From an uncultured Thermodesulfobacteriota bacterium (GTDB lineage: Bacteria > Desulfobacterota > WTBG01 > CAIYCZ01 > CAIRTM01), in assembly GCA_964621615.1 (NCBI GenBank), contig CAZUMW010000001.1, positions 28,464 to 92,463 on the forward strand: a stretch of DNA of 64,000 nt, in the 5' to 3' direction. The notes under the pieces were generated by a model. That model ran no database searches. It saw nothing but the letters and a program-made list of their open reading frames with translations, and had not been told where the DNA came from. Position numbers and translations under genes: made by a program. Positions 9,802 to 47,084 of this stretch are shown here, piece after piece (within the stretch, counting starts at the first letter, position 1; each line of letters starts with the position of its first letter).

Positions 9802-9886
9802 ATATTAAATATTTCACACAAAGAGAAGCACAAATGATGTCTCATAGGAACACGATTCAGGCAGATTGTATTTTGGGGAACGGTTA

Positions 9887-10131: not shown

Positions 10132-10162
10132 TGTTTAATTGAAGTTGAGTAGGTTATGAATT

Positions 10163-13362: not shown

Positions 13363-13414
13363 TAGTGATATTTGGCAGCACGCGGGCGGTGGCACATCTT
13401 AAATAAAAAAATTT

Positions 13415-13681
13415 ATGGATGCACTTATTCGTTTTGCAACGTCTGTTTTGTATGTTTTGGCCGGCTGGGGGACAAAGCAATTTTTCAGTGGGAATATAGA
13501 TAAGTATAAAATTCTATATATAGCAGTGCCGATATTATTGGCAATATATTTTTTGGCTATAGAAAAAATGTATGAGATACAAAAGCAAAACAGAAAGATA
13601 ATTGCCAAATCCAGGAATGCCGTGATTCAATTTTTGGCATTAGCAACAATATTTTATTTTTTTGGTCTAATATTTGTGTAA
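13415..13681 (+). CDS. small hypothetical membrane protein (88 aa, 3 TM-like segments)
   Basis: AT-rich ORF at the island edge. No family recognised. Weak RBS. Confidence 0.3.
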   Translation: MDALIRFATSVLYVLAGWGTKQFFSGNIDKYKILYIAVPILLAIYFLAIEKMYEIQKQNRKIIAKSRNAVIQFLALATIFYFFGLIFV

Positions 13682-13684
13682 ATA

Positions 13685-13786
13685 AGCCCGGCAGACGTGG
13701 CGGCCAATTACTTTCTGCAGGGCGGGGATCGGTATTTATTCACCTGAGGACAGCATCCTTTGTGTGCATGAATACGGCTTTTTTTA
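13685..13786 (+). repeat. copy 2 of ~105-nt intergenic repeat family with 3' hairpin + T-run
   Basis: First ~70 nt identical to copy 3 and ~90% to copy 1. Ends GCATGAATACGGCTTTTTTT. Confidence 0.65.
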
Positions 13787-13884
13787 TGAGATGAGCACAG
13801 GGGGGCAAAAAACCGTTATTTAACCTGTGTGTCCTTGTGGTTTTATAAAATGGACGGCGGTTACATGAGTCCCCGGAGCAGTAT

Positions 13885-29445: not shown

Positions 29446-29928
29446 TCACTCATTCCTCTTTTGTCCCACCACGTTCGTGTCTTTCAGATTATTTGTCCGG
29501 CTTAACAGTGCATCAACTGAACCGTCTGCCTCCTGGAAGCAATCAGATTTTCGCGCATTAAAAATTCTTCTAAACCATTGATACATATGGTGCATGTAAT
29601 TTTCATCCCCACAGAACATCCTTCTGCCGTTCTTATAGATACATGCATTCTTAATCTCTATTTCGCCGGATGCAATATCTTCATATGAAAAAGACATCTC
29701 TCTGGGATAAAACGTGGGGTTACTTTTGATGTAGAAAAGATCGTCCTGTATACCGTATGCTCTGGGAACATACAGATAGCAGCCAAAAACACCGTCATCT
29801 ATACAGGGAAACGCAGTTAACCAGTATTTAAATTCATAAATGACATCATCGGTGCATTCTGCACTAACAGGAGATGCAGTCAATGAGAGCAATATAAGAA
29901 TGGTGCCGGTTAAATAAAATTTTTTCAT
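29446..29928 (-). CDS. secreted hypothetical protein (Cys-containing, 160 aa)
   Basis: Signal peptide MKKFYLTGTILILLSLTASPVSA. AGGAGGGGGG RBS. Confidence 0.45.
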   Translation of the reverse strand: MKKFYLTGTILILLSLTASPVSAECTDDVIYEFKYWLTAFPCIDDGVFGCYLYVPRAYGIQDDLFYIKSNPTFYPREMSFSYEDIASGEIEIKNACIYKNGRRMFCGDENYMHHMYQWFRRIFNARKSDCFQEADGSVDALLSRTNNLKDTNVVGQKRNE

Positions 29929-29994: not shown

Positions 29995-30055
29995 CCGGAC
30001 TGGCTGTATAGAGAAGGGATACTCTATCAGGCAGTCCGGCTATCCGCTTTTGTAG
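29995..30055 (-). terminator. hairpin + U7 on minus strand in the leader of 29446..29928 (terminator/attenuator-like)
   Basis: Minus-strand reads CCGGACTGCCTGATAGAGTATCCCTTCTCTATACAGCCAGTCCGG then TTTTTTT, about 65 nt upstream of the start codon. Confidence 0.35.
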
Positions 30056-30479
30056 CGGACCCGCGGCTTTCCGCCACCCGATCACTCGGGATTCGGTTTT
30101 TTTCTGATATCAGTTCACAAATGAAATGTTAAACATATAACAAAGCATATTTTGCCACCATTTAAATTGTTATGTACTAATTATTTCTATTAGTGATATA
30201 TAACAAAAATTCAAGTGCATAATTGAGCTTTGCCGAATAAAGGCTTATAAAAAGCAGCGCCTATGTAACTGTAATAAAGGATATAATCAGCGAAAATGAA
30301 CGGTAAATACGGGGGCAGTGTCCGGAAATGCAGCGCAAAAAAGGTACGAGCTCTCGAGGGTGCACACAAATTTTTTTGATTTGACGTAACGAAACAATTG
30401 ATGACAAACGGTGTTTCATATTAATATAGGCACATAGCATTAAAGCATATATCCATTAACCCGTTCGAGGTGCCCTGTT

Positions 30480-31563: not shown

Positions 31564-33237
31564 TCAGGAGCTTACCTGTTTTTTTGCCTGAAGGTATGCG
31601 CCGCAGGACAGGTAGATCAGCACAAATCCGCTCATCAGAATAAGCCCGCCCACAACCGTCAGAATCCAGTTGCTGTCCCGTATATAGCTTATGATGTTCC
31701 ATATCATAGCGTATATTGTCGTAATTGCCACCAGCACCAGCGGAATAGTGATAAACCATCGCTTTGTCTTGCGCTTCACCAGATAGATTGTGATGGTGGC
31801 AAAGACAAGCGAGGCCAGAAGCTGATTTGTGGTGCCGAACAGCGGCCAGAGCAGAAGTCCCGCGGGCTTGCCGCCGTAAGTGCCCATGGCAAGCATGAAT
31901 GCCAGGCCCGCACAGATCCCGGATCCCACATAGCGGTTTTTCAGGACCGGCGTTTTGTGCTGATCCCCGAACTCGGCGACAATATAGCGCCCGAGGCGGC
32001 ACGCGGAGTCGAGTGTGGTCATGGCAAATGCAATAATAATGAGCGCGATAAAGGTTTTTCCGATTTTGACCGGTATGCCCAGCGGAGCAATGAACAGTGC
32101 CGAGCCGTCGACAAAGGCAGTCAGCTTTGCACCAAGGCCTGCGGCTGCGGTCCAGCTTTTGTAATGCCCCATCCAGTCCCCTGTGCTGTCAAAGCCCGCT
32201 GTGCAGGCGACAACCGCACACAGCGCAAGTGCCGATTCGCCGATCATTCCGCCGTACGCGACAAAGGGCGCATCCTGCTCGCTGTTCAGCTGCTTTGAGG
32301 ATGTTCCGGAAGACACGATCGAGTGAAATCCTGACAGAGCGCCGCAGGCGATGGTGATGAATAAGAAGGGCCACATAGGCGGTGCGCCGGGTACGCTGAG
32401 CCGTATGGCCGGGGCATCCATTGCCGGAGCGGACACGATAATCCCCACAAAAAGAAGCAGCAGGCCGGCATACAGCTTGAATGACTCCAGATAATCCCGG
32501 GGCTGGAGCAGCAGCCAGACGGGAAGAACCGACGCGACCAGGCTGTATACCGCAAGCAGCATAATCCATGTCGATTTTGCAGAGCCGATAATGCAGCTTT
32601 CAGGCAGTTGGTACGGATGATCTGCTCCCCACCAGATGGCAAGCGCCATCAGTATAATGCCTACCGTGCTTGCCGGCCCCAGGCCGATATTTGTTCGGTA
32701 TATCAGCACCCCGATGGCGATGGCGATCACCATGAGGGAAAATACGGGAAAGACCACTTCCGGGTATTCGATCAGCAGGCCGGCGATAACCAGAAGAAAC
32801 ACGGCAAGCACCAGCACGAGCACGAAAAACATGATAATCATGTAGGCGGTTGTTGCCTTTCTGCCGAGCATTTCCCCGGCGATATCACCGATTGAGCGGG
32901 CGCGGTTTCTTACCGACAGTACCAGAGCGCTTAAATCATGGACGCAGCCCATGAGCACGGCTCCGAATACCACCCACAAAAAAGCAGGAACCCATCCCCA
33001 TATGACGGCAAGCGCCGGCCCCACAATCGGTGCGGCGCCGGCAATAGAAGCAAAATGATGACCGAACAGCACGTACTTATTGGTTGGAAGATAGTCGACA
33101 CCATCCTTCATAGTATGAGACGGTACCGGGGCCGACGGGTCGAGCCGGAAGATTTTATCGGCAAGATACCGGGCATACAGCCGGTACCCCAGGACGTATA
33201 ATATAAGACCGCTGACGGTGATGAGTATTGCCTTCAT
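31564..33237 (-). CDS. cstA: carbon starvation protein A (CstA-family peptide/pyruvate transporter)
   Basis: N-terminal ILYVLGYRLYARYLADKIFRLD...VLFGHHFASIAGAAPIVGPALAVIWGW is the CstA signature. Polytopic. Confidence 0.85.
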   Translation of the reverse strand: MKAILITVSGLILYVLGYRLYARYLADKIFRLDPSAPVPSHTMKDGVDYLPTNKYVLFGHHFASIAGAAPIVGPALAVIWGWVPAFLWVVFGAVLMGCVHDLSALVLSVRNRARSIGDIAGEMLGRKATTAYMIIMFFVLVLVLAVFLLVIAGLLIEYPEVVFPVFSLMVIAIAIGVLIYRTNIGLGPASTVGIILMALAIWWGADHPYQLPESCIIGSAKSTWIMLLAVYSLVASVLPVWLLLQPRDYLESFKLYAGLLLLFVGIIVSAPAMDAPAIRLSVPGAPPMWPFLFITIACGALSGFHSIVSSGTSSKQLNSEQDAPFVAYGGMIGESALALCAVVACTAGFDSTGDWMGHYKSWTAAAGLGAKLTAFVDGSALFIAPLGIPVKIGKTFIALIIIAFAMTTLDSACRLGRYIVAEFGDQHKTPVLKNRYVGSGICAGLAFMLAMGTYGGKPAGLLLWPLFGTTNQLLASLVFATITIYLVKRKTKRWFITIPLVLVAITTIYAMIWNIISYIRDSNWILTVVGGLILMSGFVLIYLSCGAYLQAKKQVSS

Positions 33238-33338
33238 CTGTATATTCCTTTTGTAAAAATGATTTTTTTTACTATCTTTGATATACTTTATATGCAGTCA
33301 ATAATATTGTCAATATTCAATGAAAAGCTGGAGCGATT

Positions 33339-35012
33339 ATGAAACCATGTCTGTTTTGTATCATTGCGTGTGCAGTATGGGGGCTGTGTCTCAGTTCGTG
33401 CATCCTGTCACCTCCCCTGGTTCCGGAAGAGCCGGGACCGCCTGCCGCGGCAGAGCCGCTGCCCGCCACGGTGACTGTCGAGGCGATATCCATTCCTGCA
33501 GAGGCTCCCCGAGGCAACGGCACTCCCCCGGATGCCTGCGACAGCATAACCTTTCTGCGGTTCCGCCCGGAAACGCAAACGGGTGACCCGAAACCGGTTC
33601 GGGCGGTTCTTCTGATGATACCCGGTTATCTGGGCGGCGCGAACAATTTTTACTCATTCGGCAGACATCTGGTCGCTCTGGCCGAGCAGGCGGGTGAGGG
33701 GTCTGTTGAGGTGTGGGCGTTTGAGCGGCGCCCGAACTGCCTTGAGGATCTGACCGGAATGAACGCCGCCGAACAGCTGGGGGACCCCGATGTTGCACTT
33801 GATTATTACTACAACGGCCGGACAATCAACGGCTCCGCATTCGCCGGCTTTCTCCAAAGCGGCGAGGCGCCGTATCTGTCAGAATTCGGTCTGCAGCTCG
33901 TTATGGAGGACATCTACCGGATAGCCGTTCATATGATGCCCGACCGCGAGGACCGCGCGCGGTGTCTTTTTGTGGGCGGCCATTCGCTTGGCGCCTATCT
34001 GAGCGCGCTGTTTGCCGGGTGGGATTTTGACAATAACACTGAAACGACAGCAGATGCCGGGTTTAAAAACTGTGCCGGGCTGATAGGGCTTGACCGGCCG
34101 CTGGAAACGATAGCGGGCAGCATAGAGGAGTCGCAGTATGTGCTGGAGCTGGCGGCTCTGCGCCAGGGAACCGCGGGGCGCCTTGATGTGCTGCCCGGGA
34201 TAAGCTTTCCGCCGGAAGCGCTTGCCATTCCGGAAATGCTGGGCCTTTATGCGGCGCGCTTTCCGGACAATGAGTCCGGCTTTTTTCAGAAGGCCGCCGT
34301 TTCTTCTGAAACGGAGGCGCTCGTCCGGCTGTTTCAGTCACAAAGCATTGCCGGCTATTTTGCCGGGCCCGATAATTTTTATGAGCGCAGGTTCACCAAT
34401 GAAGCGATGCTCGGCATATTTCTCGATGACAATTTTCAGCCGGTAACTATCGGCAGGATGAGCATGGGGTTTCTTGCCGGCGGCCCTGTTGCACGGCGTC
34501 GATTCCCGGGGCAGCTGCTTGAAGAGCTCAGGCTGAACACCCTTTTTGACGCCGAGAACATTTTTGTGGCTTGCGGGGATAACGAGTCACTGTATCGGTG
34601 GGCCAATTTTGATACTGTCGGCACAAGCGCGGACCCGCTATACCAGGACTGCTCAGGGATGGTTACGCTGACGACTGTGAACGAGGAGGTAACGGATATA
34701 CAGGAGGCCGCCGCTGCGATGTATGCCGGCCCGCTTAATTTTTTCGAGTGGTATTTTCCCGCGCGGCTGCGCCTTGATATAGAGGCGGCCGGAGCCGATT
34801 ACAGCAAAAGCTACGGCCTGTGGCTCTGTTATGCGGATGCGCTTGACGGAGTTCCGAAATATGAGCTGCTGGAGGAAGATGTCGAGGGGTATGATCATCT
34901 TGACTTTCTTCTGGCCGCTGCCGACCGTCCGCAGCGGCGGGAAAACGAGGTCCTGAAGCCGTTGCTTGAATTTGTGCTTTCCCTCAGCGACGGCACCGTT
35001 ACTGTGCCATGA
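33339..35012 (+). CDS. secreted lipoprotein with alpha/beta-hydrolase (lipase-like GHSLG) motif
   Basis: Lipoprotein signal (LSSC). Nucleophile elbow VGGHSLGAY. Confidence 0.5.
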   Translation: MKPCLFCIIACAVWGLCLSSCILSPPLVPEEPGPPAAAEPLPATVTVEAISIPAEAPRGNGTPPDACDSITFLRFRPETQTGDPKPVRAVLLMIPGYLGGANNFYSFGRHLVALAEQAGEGSVEVWAFERRPNCLEDLTGMNAAEQLGDPDVALDYYYNGRTINGSAFAGFLQSGEAPYLSEFGLQLVMEDIYRIAVHMMPDREDRARCLFVGGHSLGAYLSALFAGWDFDNNTETTADAGFKNCAGLIGLDRPLETIAGSIEESQYVLELAALRQGTAGRLDVLPGISFPPEALAIPEMLGLYAARFPDNESGFFQKAAVSSETEALVRLFQSQSIAGYFAGPDNFYERRFTNEAMLGIFLDDNFQPVTIGRMSMGFLAGGPVARRRFPGQLLEELRLNTLFDAENIFVACGDNESLYRWANFDTVGTSADPLYQDCSGMVTLTTVNEEVTDIQEAAAAMYAGPLNFFEWYFPARLRLDIEAAGADYSKSYGLWLCYADALDGVPKYELLEEDVEGYDHLDFLLAAADRPQRRENEVLKPLLEFVLSLSDGTVTVP

Positions 35013-35020
35013 GAAAAGGG

Positions 35021-38000
35021 CTACGGGCACGCCCGGCTGCCGGCTGCCGACCGGTCGCGGGCGTGGGATGCCTGATGCATGAATGCCTCAATGCGCGTCT
35101 GGTCCCCGGACTGCCTGGTTCCGTCATATACCATTTTGAGTATGGGCAGATGGGGGTAGTCCCGTGCAAAGCGGCACAGCAGCGTGTTCACGATGGTGCC
35201 CGGCATGCAGTTGAAAGGAATGACATTCACTATGCCGTGGCACCCATGCTGGGCATATTCCACGCAGCGGCCCATGCTCAGCGTCGCCTCTCCGCGGATA
35301 TCTTCCGGCAGGTAGGGCCCGCACAGGTGCATGACTTCTGCCGTCGCCGGCTCTGAGAAAAAGTGAGGTATAGCGCCGGCGAACGCCTTTTTGATTTTTT
35401 TAACCTCTCGATTTTGAATGCCGCCCTTAAATAGCTCCAGCAGGAAGCGGCTCAGCGGTCCGTCGCGCCTGAAATCCTTTCGGCGCTCCCAGTCCGTGTA
35501 GGATACCCATTCCTGCAGCGTGGGCATAACAACCTCTCCGCCGCACTGCTCGATCCGCTTGATGATAAAGTCGTTGCTGAACCTGTTTGAGCGGACAAAG
35601 ATCTCCCCCACGATGCCGATAAGCGGCTTTTTTCGGGACCGGTCTGCAGGGATTGCTGTAAACCGCCGGGCGGCATCCTGCGCACAGGAGCCGATTGTGC
35701 CGGCTTGTTCCACGCATGAAACAAGAGCATCAAGGCACTGTGCATATACGGCATCGGTTTCGCCGGGATTGATCTCATAGGGCCGGGTGTGCAGCTGCAG
35801 CTTTTTCAGGTAGTCAATAACGATGAGCCCCTGCCAGCCGAGCAGCCTGAAGCCCGGGCCGAGCGCGCTCAGCGTGCTGTCATAATCGGTAGTCTGATCC
35901 AGCACAAGCAGCTCAACCGAGCCGAGCCCCAGCTCGTTGAGCACATGCCGGTGAAATCGGTTGTACTGGCCGAATCGGCAGGGGCCCATGGCGGAGGGCA
36001 TAAAAAAGCATGAGCGCTCGGGGCTGAAATCATCTGCCAGGGCCTTTCGCACGATGTCGCCGGTGGTGATAATGCAGGGATAGCACTCTTTTCCGGTGGT
36101 GTACCGCCGGCCGAGCGCTATGGAGCTTTCATCGGCCATGGGCAGCGCTTCCGCGTCTATGCCTCTGTGACGCATGGCAGCAGCGAGCATCAGCCCGTGG
36201 TCGTCCATATAGGGTATGTAGACTGTGCGGTGGTTTGTGTTGTTCCGGGCTATGGGCGCAGCGGTGACTTTGCGCCGCCCCGCGCCCGGAGCGGCTGCAG
36301 GGCGAATGCTGTCAAGATAGGCCTCAAGGCGGGTTATGATTCCGGCGTCGGCGCTGTGCTCATCAAGCTCTATGGACAGATACGGCTTTCCCGCCATTTC
36401 CCGGTCAAAATACTTGGTAATAAAGGAATCCGGGCCGCATGAAAAATTGGTAATATACACCGCATGAAGCCGCCGGTCACGGGAAACAGTCCGTGCGGCG
36501 GAAAGAATTCGCTGGCCGTAGCGCCAGTACATGGAAGACATTTCAGGGCCGAAATCATGGTGTACGGGAAGATAGTCAAGGGGAATCGGAAAGGCGCCGA
36601 GCGCGCGGAGCTTGCCGGGTATGTCGAAGTTAAGGCCCGGGTCGCAGCCGTTGTACGGCCTGCTGACAACCGCAATGCAGGGGCGGTCATCGGGCAGGCG
36701 GTCAAGCACCTCCCGGCCCCGCCTGCTCACGTCCGCTCGAAACGAGCGCAGTGAGTCAAACGCTGCTTCGGTGGCTCGGTTTACCGCCTTTTTGCCCCGG
36801 CCGAGCATTTTCCCGAGCCTGTGCAGCTGCGGGGTGTAGACACGCGCACCCCACTCAAAGTGGAGGACAGGGCTGAGCACCCGGCAGCGCGAAGAGCTCT
36901 TTTTTAGCGCGGCGCCGACCAGGTACGGAAGGCTCTGCACAAACGGGCAGTTATAGGACACGCGCGCATCTTTGCTCAGGTGCTCCATGTTTACGATACA
37001 GGGCAAAAACAAAAAATCGACCTCCCGGTCTATCAGCTCGCTCACGTGTCCGTGAGCAACCTTTATGGGAAAGCATATTTCCTCCATGACCGACTCACAC
37101 CCCCGGTTGACAATGCGGCGGGTGGTTTTGGGAGAAGAAACTACACAAAACCCGAGCTCGCTGAAAAAGGCGTTCCAGAACGGATACAGCTCAAAAAAAA
37201 GAGTTGCCCGGGGTATGCCGACTGTGGGGGCATCAGGGGGCACCGGCGCAGAGGGCGTGTACGGGTTGTTCAGGAGCGAGCTGCGCTCGGCAAACAGGTC
37301 GGGTCCGTCCGCGCACGCGGCCTCGCGTTTTTTCTCGTCATATTTGCCGCACCTGCTTCCGTAATATAGCGGGGGCTCACCTTCGATAGATACCTTTCTG
37401 ATTTCACAGGTGTTGGGACAGTCGTGACACTCGAAAGACTCAACCGTATATTGCCGCTGGGCAAGATCGAAGCCTTTAAACCGTGATGGGCCGTCTGAGC
37501 TGTGCTCGAGTGCGATAAGTGCGGCACCCAGCGCCCCGAGAACATCGTGATGCTCGGGAACGGTGATTTTTTTTCCGCATATTTTTTCGAATGCGGCTTT
37601 GACCCCCCGATTGTACGCGGTTCCTCCCTGAAAAAATATAACGTCGCCGATCCGCCGCTCCTCAACAACCCTGTTCAGGTAATTCAGTACGATTGAATAG
37701 CATAGCCCGGCCACCAGATCCTGCTTTTGCAGGCCCTGCTGCTGATAATGGTTGAGGCTCGACTCCATAAACACGGTGCACCGCTCGCCGAGGTTGACCG
37801 GGGCCGTAGAGGACAGGGCCAGTGCGCTGAAATCGTTCTTTATATCAAGGCCGAGCTTCTCGGCCTGCTCTTCAAGAAAAGAGCCGGTTCCGGCAGCGCA
37901 GACCTTGTTCATCGTAAAGTCAACGACCGCACCATGGTCCAGGCTTATGTATTTGGAGTCCTGGCCGCCGATTTCAAAAATGGTATCCACCTGCGGGTTG

Positions 38001-39220
38001 ACAGCTGTAGCGCCGCGGGCGTGTGCGGTGATTTCGTTTTTTACACAGTCCGCTCCGACAAAGTCGCCGATAAGATACCGGCCCGATCCGGTGGTCGCGG
38101 CGCCGTTGATAATCACGCTGTCGCCGACTTCGCTGCCGATTTCCCGCAGACCTCTGCAGACGGCTTCTATCGGGCGACCGCCGGTCATAAGATAGCGCCG
38201 GGCGATAACGCGGCGGGACTCATCGATCACCACCAGGTTGGTGCTGATTGAGCCGACATCAATACCAAGAAACGCGCTGATCGGAGCGGAGCCGCGGACA
38301 GGGGCGGGGTCGATGGTAATGGGGTAGCCGTCGTCTTCAAGGGGCGGATGCCTGCCGCAGTCAAACGATCGGTTGTGCAAATAGGTTTCCAGCGGCTCTG
38401 TGCCGCTGAAAGCGGCAGCCGCTCCGGCCTCCAGCATGGAGATCACCGCGCCGATCGCACCCATGCTGCAGAAGTGCCCGGGTATGACAAGCTCACCAGG
38501 CCGCAGCTCAAGCACGCTTTCAAAGGCGCGCACCATGCCGCGGTTAGCCGCCACCCCTCCCTGGAAGGCAATGGGCTTTTGCAGCTCGATGCCCTTTGCC
38601 TCGTTGCTTTTGAAATTTCTGGCCATTGCCATGCACAGGCCCATAATTATGTCATGGTCCGGCGTGGCTATTTGCTGCAGGTGAATCATGTCTGATTTGG
38701 CAAACACGCTGCAGCGTCCGGCTATGCGCGGCGGGTGCTGGGATTTCAGGGCCAGCCTGCCGAATTCCTCTTCTATGCTTACCCCCAGCCGCGCAGCCTG
38801 CTGGTCGAGAAACGAGCCTGTCCCGGCTGCGCAGACCGTGTTCATGGCAAAGTCTTTAATTCTGGATGTGCCGGTAACCGGGTCCGGCTCCAGCTGTATG
38901 AGCTTTGCGTCCTCGCCGCCTATTTCAATTATTGTTCTGATTTCGGGGCACAGCCGCGCTGTGGCCGTGCTCTGGGCGATTATTTCGTTGACGCAGTGGC
39001 ACCCCAGAACCCCTGCGATCAGCGGGCCGCCGCTGCCCGTAACAGCAGCGGCCTGTATTGCGCCGGTGCCGTGCCGGGTACACATATCCTCCAGCAGCCT
39101 CAGCAGGGTTTCTACCGGCTGGCCGTGCGTGCGCACATAATGCTCCTCCCGGATATGAGCGTCGGCTGTCATGAGAACAGCGTTTATGCTGATTGATCCG
39201 ATATCAATTCCCAGAAACAT
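35021..39220 (-). CDS. 1399-aa fusion of two BadF/BadG/BcrA/BcrD (HgdC-like) ATPase activase domains with an HgdB/DUF2229-like 2-hydroxyacyl-CoA dehydratase D-component-like domain
   Basis: Two ASKHA activase repeats (LGIDIGSISINAVL...CAAGTGSFLDQQAARLG and LGIDVGSISTNLVV...CAAGTGSFLEEQAEKLG). Cys cluster CHDCPNTC...CGKY. C-terminal dehydratase-like region. Confidence 0.8.
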   Translation of the reverse strand: MFLGIDIGSISINAVLMTADAHIREEHYVRTHGQPVETLLRLLEDMCTRHGTGAIQAAAVTGSGGPLIAGVLGCHCVNEIIAQSTATARLCPEIRTIIEIGGEDAKLIQLEPDPVTGTSRIKDFAMNTVCAAGTGSFLDQQAARLGVSIEEEFGRLALKSQHPPRIAGRCSVFAKSDMIHLQQIATPDHDIIMGLCMAMARNFKSNEAKGIELQKPIAFQGGVAANRGMVRAFESVLELRPGELVIPGHFCSMGAIGAVISMLEAGAAAAFSGTEPLETYLHNRSFDCGRHPPLEDDGYPITIDPAPVRGSAPISAFLGIDVGSISTNLVVIDESRRVIARRYLMTGGRPIEAVCRGLREIGSEVGDSVIINGAATTGSGRYLIGDFVGADCVKNEITAHARGATAVNPQVDTIFEIGGQDSKYISLDHGAVVDFTMNKVCAAGTGSFLEEQAEKLGLDIKNDFSALALSSTAPVNLGERCTVFMESSLNHYQQQGLQKQDLVAGLCYSIVLNYLNRVVEERRIGDVIFFQGGTAYNRGVKAAFEKICGKKITVPEHHDVLGALGAALIALEHSSDGPSRFKGFDLAQRQYTVESFECHDCPNTCEIRKVSIEGEPPLYYGSRCGKYDEKKREAACADGPDLFAERSSLLNNPYTPSAPVPPDAPTVGIPRATLFFELYPFWNAFFSELGFCVVSSPKTTRRIVNRGCESVMEEICFPIKVAHGHVSELIDREVDFLFLPCIVNMEHLSKDARVSYNCPFVQSLPYLVGAALKKSSSRCRVLSPVLHFEWGARVYTPQLHRLGKMLGRGKKAVNRATEAAFDSLRSFRADVSRRGREVLDRLPDDRPCIAVVSRPYNGCDPGLNFDIPGKLRALGAFPIPLDYLPVHHDFGPEMSSMYWRYGQRILSAARTVSRDRRLHAVYITNFSCGPDSFITKYFDREMAGKPYLSIELDEHSADAGIITRLEAYLDSIRPAAAPGAGRRKVTAAPIARNNTNHRTVYIPYMDDHGLMLAAAMRHRGIDAEALPMADESSIALGRRYTTGKECYPCIITTGDIVRKALADDFSPERSCFFMPSAMGPCRFGQYNRFHRHVLNELGLGSVELLVLDQTTDYDSTLSALGPGFRLLGWQGLIVIDYLKKLQLHTRPYEINPGETDAVYAQCLDALVSCVEQAGTIGSCAQDAARRFTAIPADRSRKKPLIGIVGEIFVRSNRFSNDFIIKRIEQCGGEVVMPTLQEWVSYTDWERRKDFRRDGPLSRFLLELFKGGIQNREVKKIKKAFAGAIPHFFSEPATAEVMHLCGPYLPEDIRGEATLSMGRCVEYAQHGCHGIVNVIPFNCMPGTIVNTLLCRFARDYPHLPILKMVYDGTRQSGDQTRIEAFMHQASHARDRSAAGSRACP

Positions 39221-41141
39221 ATGCAGCGCCTTTCTGAACGAAGGTCGAACACGCGTCGTTTTCCAGAAAAAGGTGATGCCACAGCTGTACGAAAAAACAG
39301 GTAATCACAAGACCGGAATAGTCAACCTGGCCCTTTTTGCCGGGGGCTGCAAGCATAGTTTCGATATAGCGGGGGTTGAAAATCCCGGCTTTTTTGATTT
39401 GTGCAGGCGAAAGCATATCGCGGAGCATATCCCCTGCGGCTGAGATGAGCACAGAAGCGGGCGGCTGCAGGGGCTGCTTTCTGCGCGTGCACACACCGTC
39501 AGGAAGAAGGCGGCGCATGCTTTTTTTGAGGATGTATTTTTCGGTAAGGCCGCGGATTTTGACGTGGTGGGGCAGCGTAAAGAAAAAATCAACCAGCTCG
39601 TGGTCAAGAAAAAGCGGCCGCATTTCAACCCCGTTTGCCATGCTCATTTTGTCAGAAAGCGGCAGCGTAAGATTTAAAAGACGCATTTTAGTGTCTATAT
39701 ACAGGGCCTGGTCTATGAGGGGGCGGCATGCGCACCTGCTCAGGTCAAAGAAAAACGGGCTGCTGCCTGCAGAATGAGCGTGCATAGCTGCATCATAAAA
39801 ATCAGACGTCAGCAGCTGGCTTTTTTGCTGAAAAGCCTGAAAGCGGTATGGGACGGCAGGGTGTGAAACCGGAAACGCGCTGCCGGATTGCTTGAGGCGC
39901 TCATACAGCGCCTCCGCATCTCGCGGTGTGTTAATAAACGGAAACAGAGACTGCAGTATGTTTTTTCGGAACAGGCTCTCTGTTTTTTTTATAAAATCCA
40001 TAGCCTTGATGATTTTGAAATACCGATAGCCGCCGATGGTTTCATCTGCCCCGTCCCCGGAAAGCACGACGCGGATGCCCAGCTCGCGGGCCTTTTTTGA
40101 GAGCAGAAACAGGGGCAAATTCAGCAGGGATACCAGCGGGTTCTCAAGGTGATAGACAAGCCGGGAAATGTCATCGCGGCCTATGGTGCAGGGGAACTCG
40201 ATATTGTTTGTGTTGAACAATGAGGCAACCTGCCGCGAATATGCGGTTTCATCATAATCTGCTCCCGCAAAGGTGATCGTAAGCGCAGTGACCGGATCGT
40301 CGCGCAGGCCAGAGTACAGCCCTGTTATGACGCTCGAGTCAATACCGCCGCTTAAATAGGCAGCAACCGGCACATCTGAGACAAGGCTGTTTTGAACGGC
40401 GCGGGTGACTGCATCCCGGGTTTTCTCCGCAAGCTCGTTATCGTCCTCGGTGCTGATTGGGGCCTCAAGATTGATGTCCCAGTATTCAACGGTTTTTTCG
40501 CCGCCCGGGGTTTTTTTAAGCCAGTGTCCGGGAAGCAGCTGATCTATTGAGTCAAAAAATGTGTGCGGCGCGGGGTTGAAGCCGTAGGTTAACAGGTGGT
40601 CGACAGCTTGTGGGTTGAGCCGGCGGGGGACCTTGGGATGCTGCAGCAGCGATTTTATTTCGGACGCAAAAAGGAACGTCCCGTCCGGCAGGCAGGTTGT
40701 ATAGACCGGCTTGATGCCGAACCGGTCACGCGCAAGAAACAGCTCCCGGCTTCGGGTGTTCCAGATTGCAAAGGCAAACATCCCGCGAAAGCGCTCAAGG
40801 CAGGAGGGGCCCCAGGTGACATAGGCGGCCAGCACCACCTCGGTATCCGTGCCGGTGGAGAATGCATAGCTGCGCCCTGCGAGGTGCTCTCTGATCTCGC
40901 GGTAATTGTACAGCTCTCCGTTATATACGATGCAGTGGGATCGGTCAGGTGAATAAATGGGCTGCGCACCTTCCTGGAGATCGATGATGCGCAGCCTGCG
41001 CGCGGCCAGGTGGATGGACGGGTCGATATGGAAGCCTTCCTGGTCCGGCCCGCGGTGTTCAAGCGCCGCCGACATATGTGTAATGAGCCGTGCGTCGGTA
41101 TCCAGTCCGTTTTTGTTATATATGCCTGCGATTCCACACAT
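39204..41141 (-). CDS. asparagine synthetase B-like glutamine-hydrolysing amidotransferase (class II GATase + PP-loop ATP pyrophosphatase)
   Basis: N-terminal MCGIAGI nucleophile. PP-loop SGGIDSS. Its 3' end overlaps the start of 35021..39220 by 17 nt. Confidence 0.8.
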   Translation of the reverse strand: MCGIAGIYNKNGLDTDARLITHMSAALEHRGPDQEGFHIDPSIHLAARRLRIIDLQEGAQPIYSPDRSHCIVYNGELYNYREIREHLAGRSYAFSTGTDTEVVLAAYVTWGPSCLERFRGMFAFAIWNTRSRELFLARDRFGIKPVYTTCLPDGTFLFASEIKSLLQHPKVPRRLNPQAVDHLLTYGFNPAPHTFFDSIDQLLPGHWLKKTPGGEKTVEYWDINLEAPISTEDDNELAEKTRDAVTRAVQNSLVSDVPVAAYLSGGIDSSVITGLYSGLRDDPVTALTITFAGADYDETAYSRQVASLFNTNNIEFPCTIGRDDISRLVYHLENPLVSLLNLPLFLLSKKARELGIRVVLSGDGADETIGGYRYFKIIKAMDFIKKTESLFRKNILQSLFPFINTPRDAEALYERLKQSGSAFPVSHPAVPYRFQAFQQKSQLLTSDFYDAAMHAHSAGSSPFFFDLSRCACRPLIDQALYIDTKMRLLNLTLPLSDKMSMANGVEMRPLFLDHELVDFFFTLPHHVKIRGLTEKYILKKSMRRLLPDGVCTRRKQPLQPPASVLISAAGDMLRDMLSPAQIKKAGIFNPRYIETMLAAPGKKGQVDYSGLVITCFFVQLWHHLFLENDACSTFVQKGAAYVSGN

Positions 41142-41357
41142 ACGAACAAATCTGCAACAGGTGAGCGGTAATGTATATTAATGGTAACGGGTCTGTCAGG
41201 ATGCTGACGTCTTAGAATCGTTCAGAACGGCAGGGGCAGTCCCTGTGGGATGAAAGTATAGGTAAATGCACGGGGGGTGTCAAGCGCTTGTGTACAACAA
41301 AAAAGCCCTGCAGAAATACTGCAGGGCTTTTTTGCATATTTATGCGGCCCGCATACA

Positions 41358-42911
41358 TTACACGGGGATGTTGCCGTGGCGTTTGGCCGGCCTGGTCTCC
41401 CGCTTGTTTTTGATTGCATCAAGCGACCGGGACAGAATTTTACGCGTTTCCGAGGGAAGAATAATGTCGTCCACATAGCCCCTTGATGCCGCGATATAGG
41501 GGTTTGAAAAAAGATCCTCGTACTCTTTGATTTTTTCTTCGCGCTTTGCCTTGGGGTCATCGGCTTCCTTGATCTCACGCCGGTGAATGATGTTTGCGGC
41601 ACCTGCTGCGCCCATAACGGCAATTTCAGCGCTGGGCCAGGCATAGACAAAGTCCGCGCCGAGATGCTTGCTGCACATTGCAATGTAGGATCCGCCGTAT
41701 GCTTTGCGGGTGATCAGCGTCATTTTAGGGACAGTTGCCTCGGAGTAGCACCACAGCAGCTTTGCGCCGTGTCTGATGATCCCGCTGAATTCCTGATCGG
41801 TGCCGGGAAGATAGCCGGGCACATCCATTATCGTCAGGAGGGGAATGTTAAACGCATCGCAGAAGCGGATAAACCGGGTTGCCTTATCAGAGGCGTTGAC
41901 ATCCAGGGCGCCGCCCAGATTGGACGGCTGATTGGCAATGATGCCGATAACGTTGCCGTTGAGCCGGGCGAAGCAGATAACCATATTCAGGGCATAATAT
42001 TCATGCGGCTCAAAGAAAACGCCCTTGTCAACGATTCCGGCGATAACCTGCTTTATATCGTAGGGCTGATTGGGATTGTCGGGGATGAGATTTTCCATCT
42101 CCGGCGTTTCGCGGTCGGCGGGATCCCCCGTATCAACGTATGGCGGGTCCTCCATGTTGTTGTTCGGGAGGTAGCTGAGCAGCTCCTTTATCAGATCAAG
42201 GGCATGCTTGTCGTTTTCAGCGGCGAAGTGGGCAACGCCGCTTTTTGTGTTGTGTACCATGGCGCCGCCGAGCTCGTTGTGGGTAACCTCCTCACCGGTA
42301 ACCGCCTGAATAACCTGAGGGCCGGTAATGTACATATAGCTTGAGTTTTTCACCATGACGATCCAGTCGGTCATTGCCGGGGAATACACAGCGCCGCCCG
42401 CTGTCGGGCCCATGATGCAGGTGATCTGCGGAATAACACCGGATGCTGCGGAATTTCTGAAAAAAATTTCACCGAACCCGCACAGGGCATCGATCCCCTC
42501 CTGGATGCGTGCGCCTCCCGAGTCGTTCAGACCGACGCAGGGACATCCGGCTTTCATGGCAAGATCCATGATTTTTGTTATTTTTTTTGCGTGCATTTCA
42601 CCCAGAGATCCGCCGCGGGCTGTGAAATCCTGTGCAAAAATATACACGGTACGGCCGCTTACCTTACCGTATCCGATAATGACGCCGTCTGCGGGAATCT
42701 GGTTTTTTTCCATATTGAAATAGGTGCAGCGGTGCTTTACAAACATGTCTATTTCCTGGAAAGTGCCGGCATCAAAAAAATAGTCTATTCTTTCGCGCGC
42801 GGTCATCTTGCCCTTCGCATGCTGGCTGTCAATGCCTTTCTGGCCGCCCATTGCCTGCAGTTTTTCTTTTGTTTGTTTCAGTTCCTCTATTTTGTCATTA
42901 ATAACACCCAT
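41358..42911 (-). CDS. acyl-CoA carboxyltransferase (methylmalonyl-CoA decarboxylase alpha / propionyl-CoA carboxylase beta family)
   Basis: 517 aa. N-terminal EELKQTKEKLQAMGGQKGIDSQHAKGKMTARERIDYFFD typical of the family. Confidence 0.85.
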   Translation of the reverse strand: MGVINDKIEELKQTKEKLQAMGGQKGIDSQHAKGKMTARERIDYFFDAGTFQEIDMFVKHRCTYFNMEKNQIPADGVIIGYGKVSGRTVYIFAQDFTARGGSLGEMHAKKITKIMDLAMKAGCPCVGLNDSGGARIQEGIDALCGFGEIFFRNSAASGVIPQITCIMGPTAGGAVYSPAMTDWIVMVKNSSYMYITGPQVIQAVTGEEVTHNELGGAMVHNTKSGVAHFAAENDKHALDLIKELLSYLPNNNMEDPPYVDTGDPADRETPEMENLIPDNPNQPYDIKQVIAGIVDKGVFFEPHEYYALNMVICFARLNGNVIGIIANQPSNLGGALDVNASDKATRFIRFCDAFNIPLLTIMDVPGYLPGTDQEFSGIIRHGAKLLWCYSEATVPKMTLITRKAYGGSYIAMCSKHLGADFVYAWPSAEIAVMGAAGAANIIHRREIKEADDPKAKREEKIKEYEDLFSNPYIAASRGYVDDIILPSETRKILSRSLDAIKNKRETRPAKRHGNIPV

Positions 42912-43074
42912 TAACGTCTCCTTTCCTCTAAAGCCGATTTGGTCATTGACTGTGAGTAATATGCGTGGTCAGACTCATTAGTTTATCGTTATTCTGGGTT
43001 TTTTGTCAAGAAAAAGGGACCGGTAAAAGGGGGTCTTCCAGGGAGCGACCCTGTCTCCGGGAGGCCTGATACAG

Positions 43075-44016
43075 CTACTGAAAAGCAGGCGGCGGCGGAT
43101 CAGCATCCGGCTGCTCCCGCAGGGTTTCCTGCTGCTCCCAGTCGAGCAGGCGCTGCCTGGTTTTTCGCTTTTTGTGAACATAGCATACAATAAAAACAAT
43201 GCTTGCCACAAACCACAGAAACCCTGAGCTGGTCAGCAGGGGAATCCAGCTGAAGCGAAGGTGGACATAGCGCAGCCAGCGGTCCTCCATGCGGTGCCAG
43301 CTCATATGGTAGGTGCTTTGAACAGCACGCCCGAAATCACGGTTCCTGCTGTATGAGCCCAGAAAGGCCTTGAACGTATCGGCGCCGAACTCGCCTTTCA
43401 GAAAGGATATAAAATAAAAGCTCTGGCAATACGCGATCCTGGCCTTTCTGAGGTCAACAGGGAATGATTTGGCGATCTCATCCATGGGAAGCAGCGAATC
43501 GGTCAGGGCTGCGAAGGTAAGGGTTGACAGGCGGGAAAGCGTCCACTCGTCGGCGAAAATAATTGCCAGGCCCTCATCGAGCCAGCGCGGAATCCGGTGC
43601 TTTGACCCGAAGGCATGGCCCAGGATAATGTGGCTCAGCTCGTGCCTGAATGTTTTTAGAAGATCGACTCGCTCCTTGTGGAGCAGGATTATGCTGTTGT
43701 GTGCGGGATAGGCTACCCCTATCGCCCAGTCCGGAATGTAGGTTCCCTCAGGCTGAGACCGGTTGAATTGTTCCCGGTTGGAGACAATGGTAACGGAGAC
43801 TCTTGCCGGGAGTGAAAAGCCGGTTATGCTGCAGATACGATCCGCAGCCGGCCGGGCCTGCCTGGCAAGAAACCGGGCTGCTTTTTTTTCTGCCGGGGGG
43901 AAAATAAAGCAAAACGGGCCGGCTTCCAGACGCTGAAGCGAGGCTGCCCGGCAGGGAAAGGTACAGCAGAGAACGAGCAGCACTGTGCCTGTGAATGCGC
44001 GTGTTTTGTTATTCAT
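43075..44016 (-). CDS. secreted/membrane-anchored HExxH zinc metallopeptidase-like protein
   Basis: Signal peptide. HELSHIILGH + downstream Glu (WLDEGLA). C-terminal TM helix then basic tail. Confidence 0.45.
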   Translation of the reverse strand: MNNKTRAFTGTVLLVLCCTFPCRAASLQRLEAGPFCFIFPPAEKKAARFLARQARPAADRICSITGFSLPARVSVTIVSNREQFNRSQPEGTYIPDWAIGVAYPAHNSIILLHKERVDLLKTFRHELSHIILGHAFGSKHRIPRWLDEGLAIIFADEWTLSRLSTLTFAALTDSLLPMDEIAKSFPVDLRKARIAYCQSFYFISFLKGEFGADTFKAFLGSYSRNRDFGRAVQSTYHMSWHRMEDRWLRYVHLRFSWIPLLTSSGFLWFVASIVFIVCYVHKKRKTRQRLLDWEQQETLREQPDADPPPPAFQ

Positions 44017-44423
44017 TACATTTATCCGGAATATGGGTAAGGGGTTCTGCTGAGCATCCTGTCGGCACTTTCCCGGGAATACACAATCACCGCGCCATGG
44101 CTTTTCGCTTATTTTCGCCCGCCGTCCATGGCGGCATCCGGGGGGATCATTTCATGTGACCCTCGTGGTGAAGCTGATCAGATTTTTAAATCCGCTCCAT
44201 ACCATAGAGGTGCCTGTTCAGCAGCCAAAACTCCAGATGAAAAAGCATTAATTTTTTTGACTGCTCCGGGGTTTTGATATAAGGTGATCTCTGTTTACAT
44301 AAGTATACCGCTATTATCACCCGGCCTGCAATGGTATTGTGCCGGGCGGCTATCTTCCTGCGCTGTATGCTTTCCGTATTGCGCAAAGCGTTTTTTTCAG
44401 CACCATATGAGCGGTTGTGATTT

Positions 44424-47084
44424 ATGAGCCAAAAGCCGAAGCTTTTTTTGATAGACGCGAGCTCCTATTTTTATCGGGCATTTTTTGCGCTGCCGCCCCT
44501 GAGCACTGCTTCCGGGTTTCCCACCAATGCGCTGTACGGTTTTATTACCATGCTCAGAAAGCTCATAAACGATCATGCGCCGGAGTATCTTGCAGCCGTT
44601 CTTGACCGCCCCGAGCCCACCTTCCGCCACGAGGCATATGAGCACTATAAAGCCCACCGGGAGGAAATGCCGGATGACCTTGCAGCGCAGCTTCCCTGTA
44701 TGAAAGACGTGCTTCAGGCATTTAATGTTGCAGCGGTAGAAAAGCCGGGCTATGAGGCAGATGACGTTATCGGCACGCTGGCCCTGCAGGCTGCGGCAGA
44801 GGGAGCCGATGTGGTGATTGTGACCGGCGACAAGGATATGTTTCAGCTGGTGAGGCCGGGCATATTCATACTGGATACTCTGAAAAATGCCTTCTATGAC
44901 CGCGAGGCCGTTGTCAGAAAATATGACCTTGAGCCTGACCGCCTGGTCGATATGTTCGGCCTTATGGGAGACGCCTCCGACAATGTGCCCGGCGTGCCCG
45001 GTATCGGGCCGAAGACTGCGGTAGGCCTTCTGAAGCAGTACGGCAGCATTGATAATATTTATTTGCATGTGGAAGAATTAACAAGAAAAAAGCTCAAGCA
45101 GTCCCTGATCGAGAATAAGGGCCAGGCGCTGCTGAGCCGCGACCTGGTCCGGATCGATGCAGGCGTTGCGCTTGACTGCACCTGGAAGGATTTCCGTCTT
45201 GACGGCTGTGATGAGCAGCAGCTCAGGCAGCTGTATAAGCGCTTTGAGTTCACAAGCCTGCTGCGCGAGCTGGGGCCGGGCGAGCAGAAGCAGGCAAACT
45301 ACCGGCTGCTTACCGATATGCAGGATATACAGAATTCTCTTGCTGCATGTGCAGGAAAAAAGCGCTTTGCCGTGGACCTTGAAACCACCTCGGAGCGCCC
45401 TATGGAAGCCGCAATAGTGGGTATTGCGTTGTGCTGTGAGGAGGGCGAGGCGTATTATATTCCTGTGGCACATACAAGGCTTGGTGGCCAGCCGGACCGT
45501 GACGCCGTGCTGTCGCTTCTCAAGCCGCTTCTTGAGGATCCTGCTATAGAAAAAATCTGCCACAACATGAAATATGAATATGTGCTGTTTGCCAGAAACG
45601 GCATTCAGCTGCGCGGCATGGCCTGTGACACCATGGTTGCATCATATGTTCTCAACCCCTCAAAATACCGCCACAGCCTTGACGAGGTCGCCCTCGATCA
45701 CCTGGATTACCGGACCATTTCTTATAAGGATGTGGTCGGGTCCGGCAAGAAGGCGCTTCGGTTCGATGCGGTGCCGATAGAAAAGGCGGTCCGGTATGCC
45801 TGTGAGGATGCCGATATAACAGGGCGGCTTGCGAATCTCCTTCTGCCGAGAATTGACCGTGAGGGGTTCCGGAGGCTGTTTTCCGGCATAGAAATGCCGC
45901 TTGTACCCGTGCTTGCGCAGATGGAAATGCACGGCGTGCGCATCGATACGGGTCAGCTTGCCGAGCTTTCCCGCGAGTTCGCCGGGAAGCTTGCAGTAAT
46001 CGAGCAGGAGATATTTTCCCTGACAGGCGTGACCTTCAATGTGAATTCTCCCAAACAGCTCGGAGAGATACTGTTTGAAAAGCTTCAGCTCCCGGTGGGC
46101 AAGCGAACCAAAACGGGGTATGCCACGGATGTGACCACGCTGACCGGCCTTGCAAAAGTTCATCCGCTGCCGGCGAGGGTGCTTGAGTACCGCAGCCTGG
46201 CAAAGCTTGTGTCAACGTATGTTGACGCCATGCCCGCTTTGATAAACCCCGAGACGGGGCGCATTCACACCTCATACAATCAGACCGTGACCGCAACCGG
46301 GCGGCTGAGCTCAAGCGACCCGAATCTGCAGAATATACCCATCCGCACCGAGGAGGGCATCCGCATCCGCGAGGCTTTTGTCCCGGAGCCGGGATGGAGG
46401 ATGCTTGCAGCCGATTACTCTCAGATCGAGCTTCGCCTTCTTGCACATCTTTCCGGTGACCGGACGTTGATCGACGCGTTCTTGAACAATGAGGACATAC
46501 ACGCCCGGACTGCAGCCGAGCTGTGGGCGGACGGCGGCCCGGTGAGCTCCGGCATGCGGCGGGATGCAAAAGTGATTAATTTCGGGATTATTTACGGCAT
46601 GAGCGCCTACGGCCTCAGCAACGAGCTGGGTATCGACCAGCAGACCGCACAGGAATATATTGATGCCTATTTTGCTCGATACCCGGATGTGCGGCGGTTT
46701 CTTGACAGCATTCTTGAGCAGGCTCGCCGCGAAGGCTATGTGGAAACGCTTATGGGGCGCCGCCGGTATCTTCCTGATATCAATGCGCGAAGCGGTGCCG
46801 CGCGGAAGTTTGCAGAGCGCATGGCAATCAACGCACCTATTCAGGGCGCTGCTGCCGATATGATAAAAATAGCCATGATCCGCATTCACGACGCCCTTGT
46901 CAGCGGCGGCATGCAAAGCCGCATGATCATGCAGGTTCACGACGAGCTTGTTTTTGAAGTGCCCGGGCGCGAGGTGAAAGCGCTGACAGAGCTTGTTCGC
47001 CGGGAGATGGAGGGCGTGGCCGATCTGCATGTACCGCTGACGGTTGATATCAGCACGGGTGATAACTGGCGCCAGGCGCATTAG
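44424..47084 (+). CDS. polA: DNA polymerase I
   Basis: 886 aa. 5'-3' exonuclease N-terminus, 3'-5' exonuclease, and family A polymerase motifs (RRxAKxxNFGxxYG, QVHDELVFE). Confidence 0.95.
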   Translation: MSQKPKLFLIDASSYFYRAFFALPPLSTASGFPTNALYGFITMLRKLINDHAPEYLAAVLDRPEPTFRHEAYEHYKAHREEMPDDLAAQLPCMKDVLQAFNVAAVEKPGYEADDVIGTLALQAAAEGADVVIVTGDKDMFQLVRPGIFILDTLKNAFYDREAVVRKYDLEPDRLVDMFGLMGDASDNVPGVPGIGPKTAVGLLKQYGSIDNIYLHVEELTRKKLKQSLIENKGQALLSRDLVRIDAGVALDCTWKDFRLDGCDEQQLRQLYKRFEFTSLLRELGPGEQKQANYRLLTDMQDIQNSLAACAGKKRFAVDLETTSERPMEAAIVGIALCCEEGEAYYIPVAHTRLGGQPDRDAVLSLLKPLLEDPAIEKICHNMKYEYVLFARNGIQLRGMACDTMVASYVLNPSKYRHSLDEVALDHLDYRTISYKDVVGSGKKALRFDAVPIEKAVRYACEDADITGRLANLLLPRIDREGFRRLFSGIEMPLVPVLAQMEMHGVRIDTGQLAELSREFAGKLAVIEQEIFSLTGVTFNVNSPKQLGEILFEKLQLPVGKRTKTGYATDVTTLTGLAKVHPLPARVLEYRSLAKLVSTYVDAMPALINPETGRIHTSYNQTVTATGRLSSSDPNLQNIPIRTEEGIRIREAFVPEPGWRMLAADYSQIELRLLAHLSGDRTLIDAFLNNEDIHARTAAELWADGGPVSSGMRRDAKVINFGIIYGMSAYGLSNELGIDQQTAQEYIDAYFARYPDVRRFLDSILEQARREGYVETLMGRRRYLPDINARSGAARKFAERMAINAPIQGAAADMIKIAMIRIHDALVSGGMQSRMIMQVHDELVFEVPGREVKALTELVRREMEGVADLHVPLTVDISTGDNWRQAH

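Follow-up and report, generated by a model that had tools for sequence, protein, structure and literature searches.

What does a protein of 1399 amino acids (aa) do when a single chain holds two ATP-driven activase domains and a dehydratase-like region, and what, if anything, does it share with the amidotransferase gene that overlaps its start? The question is raised by three minus-strand genes in a 64,000-nucleotide (nt) stretch of DNA from an uncultured Thermodesulfobacteriota bacterium (the window; contig CAZUMW010000001.1, positions 28,464 to 92,463), which encode an acyl-CoA carboxyltransferase (CT), an AsnB-like amidotransferase and the 1399-aa protein. An original prediction, made from the letters alone, read them as a putative operon for an unusual ATP-driven radical (de)hydration or amidation pathway on a CoA ester or a carboxylate. 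Our analysis leads to another picture, which as a whole we consider probable: the genes form two transcription units, the large protein is of the PlsA/Ger type, and the AsnB-like gene stands beside it through gene order inherited in one clade and is not a required partner.

Results

The large gene (35021-39220, minus strand) encodes a candidate PlsA/Ger-family ATP-dependent glycerolipid ester reductase of 1399 aa and 153.5 kDa, with the domain order Act1-Act2-Cys4-Red1-Red2. Pfam finds BcrAD_BadFG in two stretches (2e-70) and DUF2229 at residues 666-883 (3.3e-59), and at its default thresholds leaves the last 516 residues unmatched; HGD-D (PF06050) is seen once and weakly, at residues 897-972 (E 7.5e-5; 22.9 bits, where the cut-off is 28.4), and precomputed PF06050 matches are present in many homologues. 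Act1, the first BcrAD_BadFG/HgdC-type ATPase domain, occupies residues ~1-274 (38399-39220; Pfam and a PDB profile match to 4EHT over positions 2-274), and Act2, the second, residues 318-575 (37496-38269; phmmer alignment to 1HUX, 9GAI_D and 4EHT), the activase domains matching MbdQ, HgdC, HadI and DCCP-R at 1e-35 to 1e-27. There follow a Cys4 knuckle of three short beta-strands (37331-37453), recognised from its invariant cysteines and an AlphaFold2 (AF2) model, and two modules of the HAD/BCR fold, Red1 (residues 666-972, DUF2229 plus an HGD-D-like tail; 36305-37225) and Red2 (residues 1000-1399; 35024-36223), all on the minus strand. The double activase joined to a dehydratase-like region, as first read from the letters, is thereby borne out by the two BcrAD_BadFG domains, DUF2229 and the fold.

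PDB sequence and profile searches returned nothing for the C-terminal 820 aa, and only fold comparison gave matches there. The tabulated values for fold relatives of the catalytic part, which carry no unit, are 13.9 for BzdN, 13.7 for HadC, 13.4 for MbdN, 13.2 for DCCP, 10.9 for HadB, 9.8 for BzdO and 9.2 for MbdO; no structure of the PlsA/Ger catalytic part itself was found in these PDB searches. The predicted local distance difference test (pLDDT) is mostly >85 in the model of Red2 and 55-70 in the knuckle, where AF2 places the strands at model residues 12-41. When Red1 is aligned with Red2 by hhalign, the probability is 89% and E is 2.3e-7 over 284 columns, with three pairs of cysteines in register. 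By this alignment the two are paralogues, and the protein holds a paralogous pair of modules of the HgdA/B-BcrB/C fold with a cysteine triad in each.

Of the 43 cysteines of the protein, 14 are invariant in 80 of 80 aligned sequences, which come from many phyla and are 44-68% identical. Four lie in the activases, C130 and C170 in Act1 and C441 and C481 in Act2. The latter two align by phmmer with C127 and C166 of HgdC, which are [4Fe-4S] ligands, and C130 and C170 sit in the equivalent motifs of Act1; this is the arrangement of HgdC-type ATPases, in which two cysteines per protomer bridge one [4Fe-4S] cluster. The knuckle contributes C598, C601, C605 and C624, Red1 contributes C716, C758 and C928, and Red2 contributes C1046, C1081 and C1338, at positions equivalent to the Red1 triad. 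Going by HadBC and HgdAB, the paired triads of Red1 and Red2 are what one would expect for two three-cysteine [4Fe-4S] clusters. A lack of conserved cluster ligands in the dehydratase-like part had been named in advance as grounds for abandoning the enzymatic reading; since the cysteines are invariant throughout the alignment, that reading is not refuted in this way. The knuckle itself, an invariant CxxCxxxC...C motif within residues 590-630, between the activase pair and Red1, is absent from the portions of the PlsA/Ger papers' text that were available.

Full-length homologues with the same length and architecture number more than 8000, the best identity among the matches listed being 68%. 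The catalytic part matches 1076 representatives of clusters at 50% identity (E<=1e-30), mostly of ~1400 aa, with some stand-alone forms of 800-850 aa. Among the homologues are those of the anammox bacteria Brocadia (L010) and Scalindua (L012), which are 52-53% identical to the 1399-aa protein over ~1390 aa.

What such proteins do, namely turn the ester lipids of anaerobes' membranes into ether lipids, has been described in several papers. The Kuenenia counterpart of the Brocadia and Scalindua homologues was termed 'modified PlsA' (PMC8788747), a name since replaced by glycerol ester reductase, Ger (PMC13159169). Two BcrAD_BadFG domains followed by DUF2229 ('BBD') are conserved in all alkyl-ether producers, further C-terminal HGD-D/DUF2229 pieces give the layouts BBDHDDH or BBDHDHDH, and homology to Ger was there defined by E<=1e-50 and at least 30% coverage against T. 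maritima Ger (PMC13159169). The 1399-aa protein has the BBD layout. When the Ger of T. maritima or of the sulfate reducer D. alkenivorans is expressed alone in anaerobic E. coli, 1-O-alkyl glycerol ethers are formed (PMC13159169), and with more sensitive detection diethers are found too (PMC11150832). Plasmalogen synthase, with its Act1-Act2-Red1-Red2 arrangement, is encoded by a two-gene plsA-plsR operon in C. perfringens, whereas E. faecalis and L. cremoris have a single gene for it, 4248-4311 bp long (PMC12838417; PMC8788747); at 4200 bp, and with the conserved cysteines in place, the open reading frame (ORF) in the window has the single-gene size of ~4.2-4.3 kb.

The original prediction called fusions of this kind functionally uncharacterised, a description that we would withdraw, since the architecture is that of published PlsA/PlsR and Ger (PMC13159169, PMC8788747, PMC11150832, PMC12838417). 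Judged by sequence, the 1399-aa protein is a new member of this already characterised family. We base this assignment on its architecture, its fold and its cysteine pattern, together with a similarity to validated enzymes that is indirect. The CoA-ester substrate suggested earlier is likewise not supported: published PlsA/Ger enzymes act on membrane glycerolipids, and since the family members described act on phospholipids, an acyl-CoA thioester would not be expected. According to PMC13274423, having two activase domains goes with the production of alkyl ethers rather than plasmalogens; that would favour Ger over PlsA here, although by the same account sequence does not yet allow an assignment.

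Is the large gene part of an operon? ORF listing returns the three minus-strand genes at 41358-42911 (CT, 517 aa), 39204-41141 (AsnB-like, 645 aa) and 35021-39220, and ORFs, Pfam and NCBIfam agree with the coordinates, domains and 17-nt overlap of the original prediction, with a spacer of 216 nt between the CT stop and the AsnB-like start. The AsnB-like stop codon (TGA, 39206-39204) falls 17 nt within the 1399-aa ORF, whose ATG is at 39220, the overlap covering 39204-39220 on the minus strand. Homology fixes both starts: MCGIAG in the AsnB-like protein provides the N-terminal nucleophile cysteine, and MFLGIDIGS in the 1399-aa protein agrees with the N-terminal consensus of its homologues. Independent assemblies of the same organism (L086-L088) have an identical arrangement, overlap included.

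The CT-AsnB spacer contains an intrinsic terminator hairpin just past the CT stop codon (41298-41334, minus strand; from sequence and RNA fold), with a perfect 17-bp stem followed by a U-run; T-runs on either side make it bidirectional in form, and its RNA fold of -31.2 kcal/mol (z -5.19) was equalled in stability by 0 of 200 shuffles. A sigma-70-type promoter-like site (41255-41283, minus strand) lies 15 bases beyond the terminator and ~105 nt upstream of the AsnB-like start; it reads TTGACA-17-TATACT, agrees with the consensus at 11 of 12 positions and has the top score in 33000-45000. At the junction of the AsnB-like and 1399-aa genes there is no terminator. Because terminator and promoter sit in the CT-AsnB spacer, CT is most likely transcribed separately, as its own unit, and the AsnB-like and 1399-aa genes most likely share one transcript in this genome. 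Of the putative operon, the co-transcription of the last two genes thus remains probable and the membership of CT falls away; a three-gene operon, with conserved linkage and with neither terminator nor promoter inside it, is not what we find. The idea that the AsnB-like gene is preceded by a riboswitch or leader was also considered and rejected, there being no Rfam match in its 5' region.

How widely is the AsnB-like gene found next to Ger? For the related loci we give, as percentages, the identity of their Ger to the 1399-aa protein of the window. The order CT-AsnB-Ger occurs behind polA and a peptidase gene in L002 (68%) and L090 (62%), and behind other flanks in L175 (65%) and L174 (62%); the contig of L089 (66%) begins at AsnB, followed by Ger. 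L001 (67%) has polA/peptidase-CT-Ger without AsnB, and in L004/5 (67%) Ger is alone and adjoins an epimerase gene. The AsnB-Ger adjacency is limited to one clade with Ger at least 62% identical, where six relatives show it (L002, L089, L090, L174 and L175 among them). In these relatives the junction is a gap of 11-256 nt and never an overlap, against -17 in the window, and CT and AsnB are 176-817 nt apart in relatives, genes of the opposite strand lying between them in L090 and L173. Among 80 Ger loci of other lineages (44-61% identity; Planctomycetota, anammox bacteria, Chloroflexota, Bacteroidales, Nitrospirota, Armatimonadota, Zixibacteria and other Desulfobacterota), AsnB is adjacent in 0 of 80 and CT in 0 of 80. 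All-against-all clustering of the flanking ORFs of these 80 loci gave no conserved partner, the largest cluster (11 of 80) being a generic histidine kinase.

If one starts from AsnB instead, L171 and L173 have an orthologue (57-59% identity) in the order CT-AsnB but no Ger beside it, the sample of L171 having a Ger (P0007) alone on another contig, and in L172 and Desulforhabdus amnigena (L091) the orthologue is found by itself near flagellar genes. Whether linked to Ger or not, the orthologues have identical catalytic motifs. Distant AsnB-family loci have Ger in 0 of 79, a weak reciprocal test because these are mostly distant relatives (33-36% identity). The amidotransferase coupling that had been proposed is therefore not supported: the absence of linkage in relatives, named in advance as grounds for giving it up, largely applies, AsnB being unlinked in 80 of 80 loci from other phyla and in L001 and L004/5, and four orthologues having no Ger link.

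As a control for neutral synteny, we took PolA: the protein of the window is 64-66% identical to those of L001, L002 and L090, where the range is 62-68% for Ger and 57-60% for AsnB, and in four genomes polA, the peptidase gene and CT, which have no functional relation, are still adjacent. Since this adjacency is retained at like divergence, gene order this deep is kept without a functional reason. The AsnB-Ger adjacency is gene order inherited in one clade of uncultured Desulfobacterota-like bacteria, with losses and translocations, and neutral synteny is enough to explain it. Nor is the amidotransferase needed for the chemistry, given that in E. coli members of the family are active when expressed alone.

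The AsnB-like protein itself (39204-41141, minus strand) matches GATase_7 (3e-44) and Asn_synthase (4.2e-70) in Pfam and scores 446 bits with TIGR01536, above the cut-off of 267. It has the Cys1 nucleophile, the SGGIDSS PP-loop, SGDGADE, RRKQP, the Lys449 equivalent and the R/N/D glutaminase residues. Throughout its subfamily, Glu348 of E. coli AsnB aligns with Asp363 (in SGDGADE), and an insertion of ~95 aa covers the aspartate-binding region; in place of region 361-387 of E. coli AsnB, whose aspartate-binding residues are Lys376, Asp384 and Arg387, stand ~120 inserted aa that do not align. Most simply, the protein would be an ordinary glutamine-dependent enzyme of the asparagine-synthase family; because of the Asp for Glu348 and the insertion, asparagine synthesis is only the default reading. 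A C-terminal tail of 17 aa, NDACSTFVQKGAAYVSGN (39204-39257, minus strand), is found only in this genome and is absent in 11 of 11 relatives. The 17-nt overlap is due to this extension, which likely arose from loss of the ancestral stop codon.

An assignment to the XrtA/PEP-CTERM amidotransferases (TIGR03108) was rejected at 470.9 bits against a cut-off of 816.9, and no exosortase context was seen. The AsnB-like orthologues (52-57%) in Desulforhabdus amnigena (L091, 8001-9887) and L172 (7001-8887) adjoin FlaG, FliS, FliD, flagellin and Uma2 genes, and L172 also has glycosyltransferase and sugar-modification genes nearby, which hints at a possible non-asparagine role for the subfamily, for example in flagellin or glycan modification.

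The CT gene (41358-42911, minus strand) is identified by Pfam Carboxyl_trans (5.7e-201), with full-length PDB matches to 1VRG (3.6e-217) and 1ON3 (2.3e-189). With TIGR01117 (mmdA, methylmalonyl-CoA decarboxylase alpha) it scores 866.7 bits, below the cut-off of 998.8, and among the matches listed, proteins that bear the name methylmalonyl-CoA carboxyltransferase in metagenome-assembled genomes of Desulfobacterota share 72-85% identity with it, relatives at 78-85% carrying this name. Going by these matches, it is an ordinary homologue of propionyl-CoA carboxylase beta or transcarboxylase 12S. Among the neighbouring ORFs examined around CT there were no biotin-carrier or biotin-carboxylase partner genes. 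These two neighbours, CT and the AsnB-like gene, define no new pathway.

Several other features were seen along the way. At L004/L005 (1-7728) the lone Ger is divergent from the epimerase gene, and farther on stand a faint NAD_synthase-like gene and a gene for a 1925-aa protein, Formyl_trans_N - AMP-binding - PP-binding x2 - Nitroreductase, which resembles nonribosomal peptide synthetases and may belong to lipid or aldehyde chemistry. Within the window, a 557-aa ORF with an N-terminal hydrophobic segment (33339-35012, plus strand) converges on the large gene, their stops 8 nt apart; even at E<=1 neither Pfam nor NCBIfam recognises it, and none of the related loci contains a counterpart. Upstream of a 160-aa ORF (29446-29928), for which Pfam gives no match even at E<=1, is a c-di-GMP-I riboswitch (30027-30107, minus strand; 49 bits, the gathering score being 35). 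A 3027-aa surface protein (17070-26153, plus strand) has 7 CARDB repeats, 4 PKD domains and a C-terminal pAdhesive_15, together with alpha-alpha toroid (TED-like) repeats resembling prenyltransferases and squalene-hopene cyclases. Farther off, a toxin-like protein of 1969 aa with RHS repeats, Transglut_core and DUF6531 (2096-8005, plus strand) is followed by a block of low GC content at 8000-14000 (0.38-0.43 against ~0.53 elsewhere) with a DEAD-helicase/phosphoribosyltransferase fusion at 10163-12190; the block gives the impression of an acquired island for toxin/immunity or defence.

Discussion

How could a protein of this architecture act on a membrane lipid? We infer its lipid substrate and chemistry from the published heterologous expression of relatives, and a plausible sequence of events would be the following. 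The promoter in the spacer would give a transcript running through the AsnB-family gene into the 1399-aa gene. In the protein, Act1 and Act2 would form an intramolecular, HgdC-like pseudo-dimer sharing one [4Fe-4S] cluster on C130, C170, C441 and C481, and ATP hydrolysis would lower the potential of this cluster and send a low-potential electron into Red1 and Red2, each of which, with its three invariant cysteines, may hold a [4Fe-4S] cluster with one open iron site. At the open iron, the carbonyl of the sn-1 (possibly the sn-2) acyl ester of a membrane phospholipid would be reduced by way of a ketyl-type intermediate. Dehydration of this intermediate would yield a vinyl ether, the PlsA outcome and a plasmalogen, and the vinyl ether might be reduced further to a saturated alkyl ether, the Ger outcome.

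Several points weigh against the picture of two units, a PlsA/Ger-type enzyme and an inherited adjacency. Promoter and terminator are predictions from consensus and folding energy, and comparable sites are not evident in the relatives L002 and L090. The similarity of the 1399-aa protein to a validated Ger or PlsA is indirect. The CT-AsnB-Ger trio persists with three different upstream flanks (those of the window, L002 and L090; of L174; and of L175), somewhat beyond what minimal synteny would give, and a small probability of co-regulation follows. Ger and PlsA are so far not distinguishable by sequence (PMC13274423). Moreover, a close paralogue from D. alkenivorans, Ger2, which at 153 kDa equals the 1399-aa protein in size, gave no ether lipids in E. 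coli (PMC11150832), so that architecture alone is no guarantee of activity.

The last of these points leads to the alternative that fares best, though we think it unlikely: the 1399-aa protein could be a paralogue within the PlsA/Ger superfamily that takes a different substrate, either another ester or a small molecule as in DCCP, or that is inactive on common phospholipids, like Ger2. The full architecture and the 14 cysteines are, however, invariant across a family that holds validated enzymes, and each module has one cysteine triad, in the manner of HAD enzymes and unlike a six-cysteine double-cubane. For the failure of Ger2, the authors of that work name inclusion bodies as a possible cause (PMC11150832).

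It is also improbable, in our estimate, that the AsnB-like and activase/dehydratase-like enzymes share one pathway in this clade, combining ATP-driven radical reduction or dehydration with amidation of a carboxylate or CoA ester, or amidating a lipid-related carboxylate while ether lipids are remodelled. Such a pathway would fit the same-strand adjacency in the window and its clade relatives (Ger 62-68%, junction -17 to +256 nt), the survival of the trio through changes of flank, and the Asp for Glu348 and insertion of the AsnB subfamily, which leave room for another substrate. It is opposed by the lack of adjacency both outside the clade and from the AsnB side, by losses and separations within the clade (L001, L004/5, L171, L173), and by lone orthologues with identical motifs (L091, L172). 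In E. coli one gene of the family suffices for activity (PMC13159169, PMC11150832), the overlap results from an extension peculiar to this genome, polA and the peptidase gene are about equally syntenic, and our literature search found no paper linking the AsnB and PlsA/Ger families.

Quite improbable, too, is a co-regulated envelope-remodelling module of CT, AsnB-like and Ger genes in this one clade, kept through several changes of flank by selection and not by inertia, in which the AsnB-like enzyme would amidate a lipid- or envelope-linked carboxylate or depend on ether lipids; the persistence of the trio would speak for it, and neutral synteny accounts for the same adjacency. Finally, that CT carboxylates an acyl-CoA, the AsnB-like enzyme amidates the new carboxylate in the manner of OxyD, which forms malonamyl-CoA, and the 1399-aa protein acts on the CoA ester is very improbable, for although CT and AsnB recur together even without the large gene (L171, L173), they are parted here by terminator and promoter and in relatives by the long spacers and opposite-strand insertions, CT is close to the common methylmalonyl-CoA carboxyltransferases of Desulfobacterota, and there is no polyketide or other tailoring context.

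Returning to the PlsA/Ger reading, its consequence is that this uncultured anaerobe, having the gene, is likely to produce bacterial ether lipids, either alkyl glycerol ethers or plasmalogens. That is relevant to the 'lipid divide' and to where ether-lipid biomarkers in sediments come from, and is of modest importance; the adjacency of AsnB is a minor curiosity at the level of a clade. For studies of PlsA/Ger mechanism, the map of 14 cysteines, the Cys4 knuckle and the paralogy of Red1 and Red2 with their aligned triads should be useful.

How does this locus compare with known systems? The neighbours are easily placed. CT matches propionyl-CoA carboxylase beta and transcarboxylase 12S over its full length, and scores below the mmdA equivalog cut-off. 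The AsnB-like protein shares the N-terminal Cys, the glutaminase residues, the SGGxDS PP-loop and the Lys449 equivalent with E. coli AsnB (1CT9) and the hydroxyamidotransferase TsnB9 (7YLZ), and differs from E. coli AsnB in being a ~625-aa long form with an insertion at the aspartate site and Asp in place of Glu348.

The 1399-aa protein is close to Ger (Tmari_0479; SHJ90043), with which it is compared by published description: both are single chains of ~1400 aa that carry two BcrAD_BadFG domains and DUF2229, and the HGD-D-like pieces of Ger may have their counterpart in the one weak HGD-D stretch. Ger occurs in anaerobes including Desulfobacterota and is usually a stand-alone gene, whereas the window gene is preceded and overlapped by the AsnB-like gene. 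It also has the Act1-Act2-Red1-Red2 layout and the conserved Fe-S cysteines in common with PlsA-PlsR (CPE1194-1195) and the single-gene PlsA of E. faecalis (EF1327), L. cremoris and B. longum, whose O2-sensitive chemistry on the sn-1 ester is of the BCR/HAD type. The single-gene form (4248-4311 bp) is like the window gene in length, while C. perfringens PlsA-PlsR is split in two genes, unlike the single gene of the window.

More distant are the 2-hydroxyacyl-CoA dehydratases (HadBC/HadI, HgdAB/HgdC), which are 9-14% identical to the 1399-aa protein in the catalytic part. The latter unites all four components in one chain and has the Cys4 knuckle in addition, and the substrate of PlsA/Ger is a membrane glycerolipid ester, where HadBC and HgdAB act on a 2-hydroxyacyl-CoA. 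With the class I benzoyl-CoA reductases (BzdNOPQ, MbdNOPQ) and with DCCP/DCCP-R, which have other substrates, there is no likeness at the sequence level in the catalytic part, and the 3+3 cysteine pattern of the 1399-aa protein is unlike the six-cysteine double-cubane [8Fe-9S] site of DCCP.

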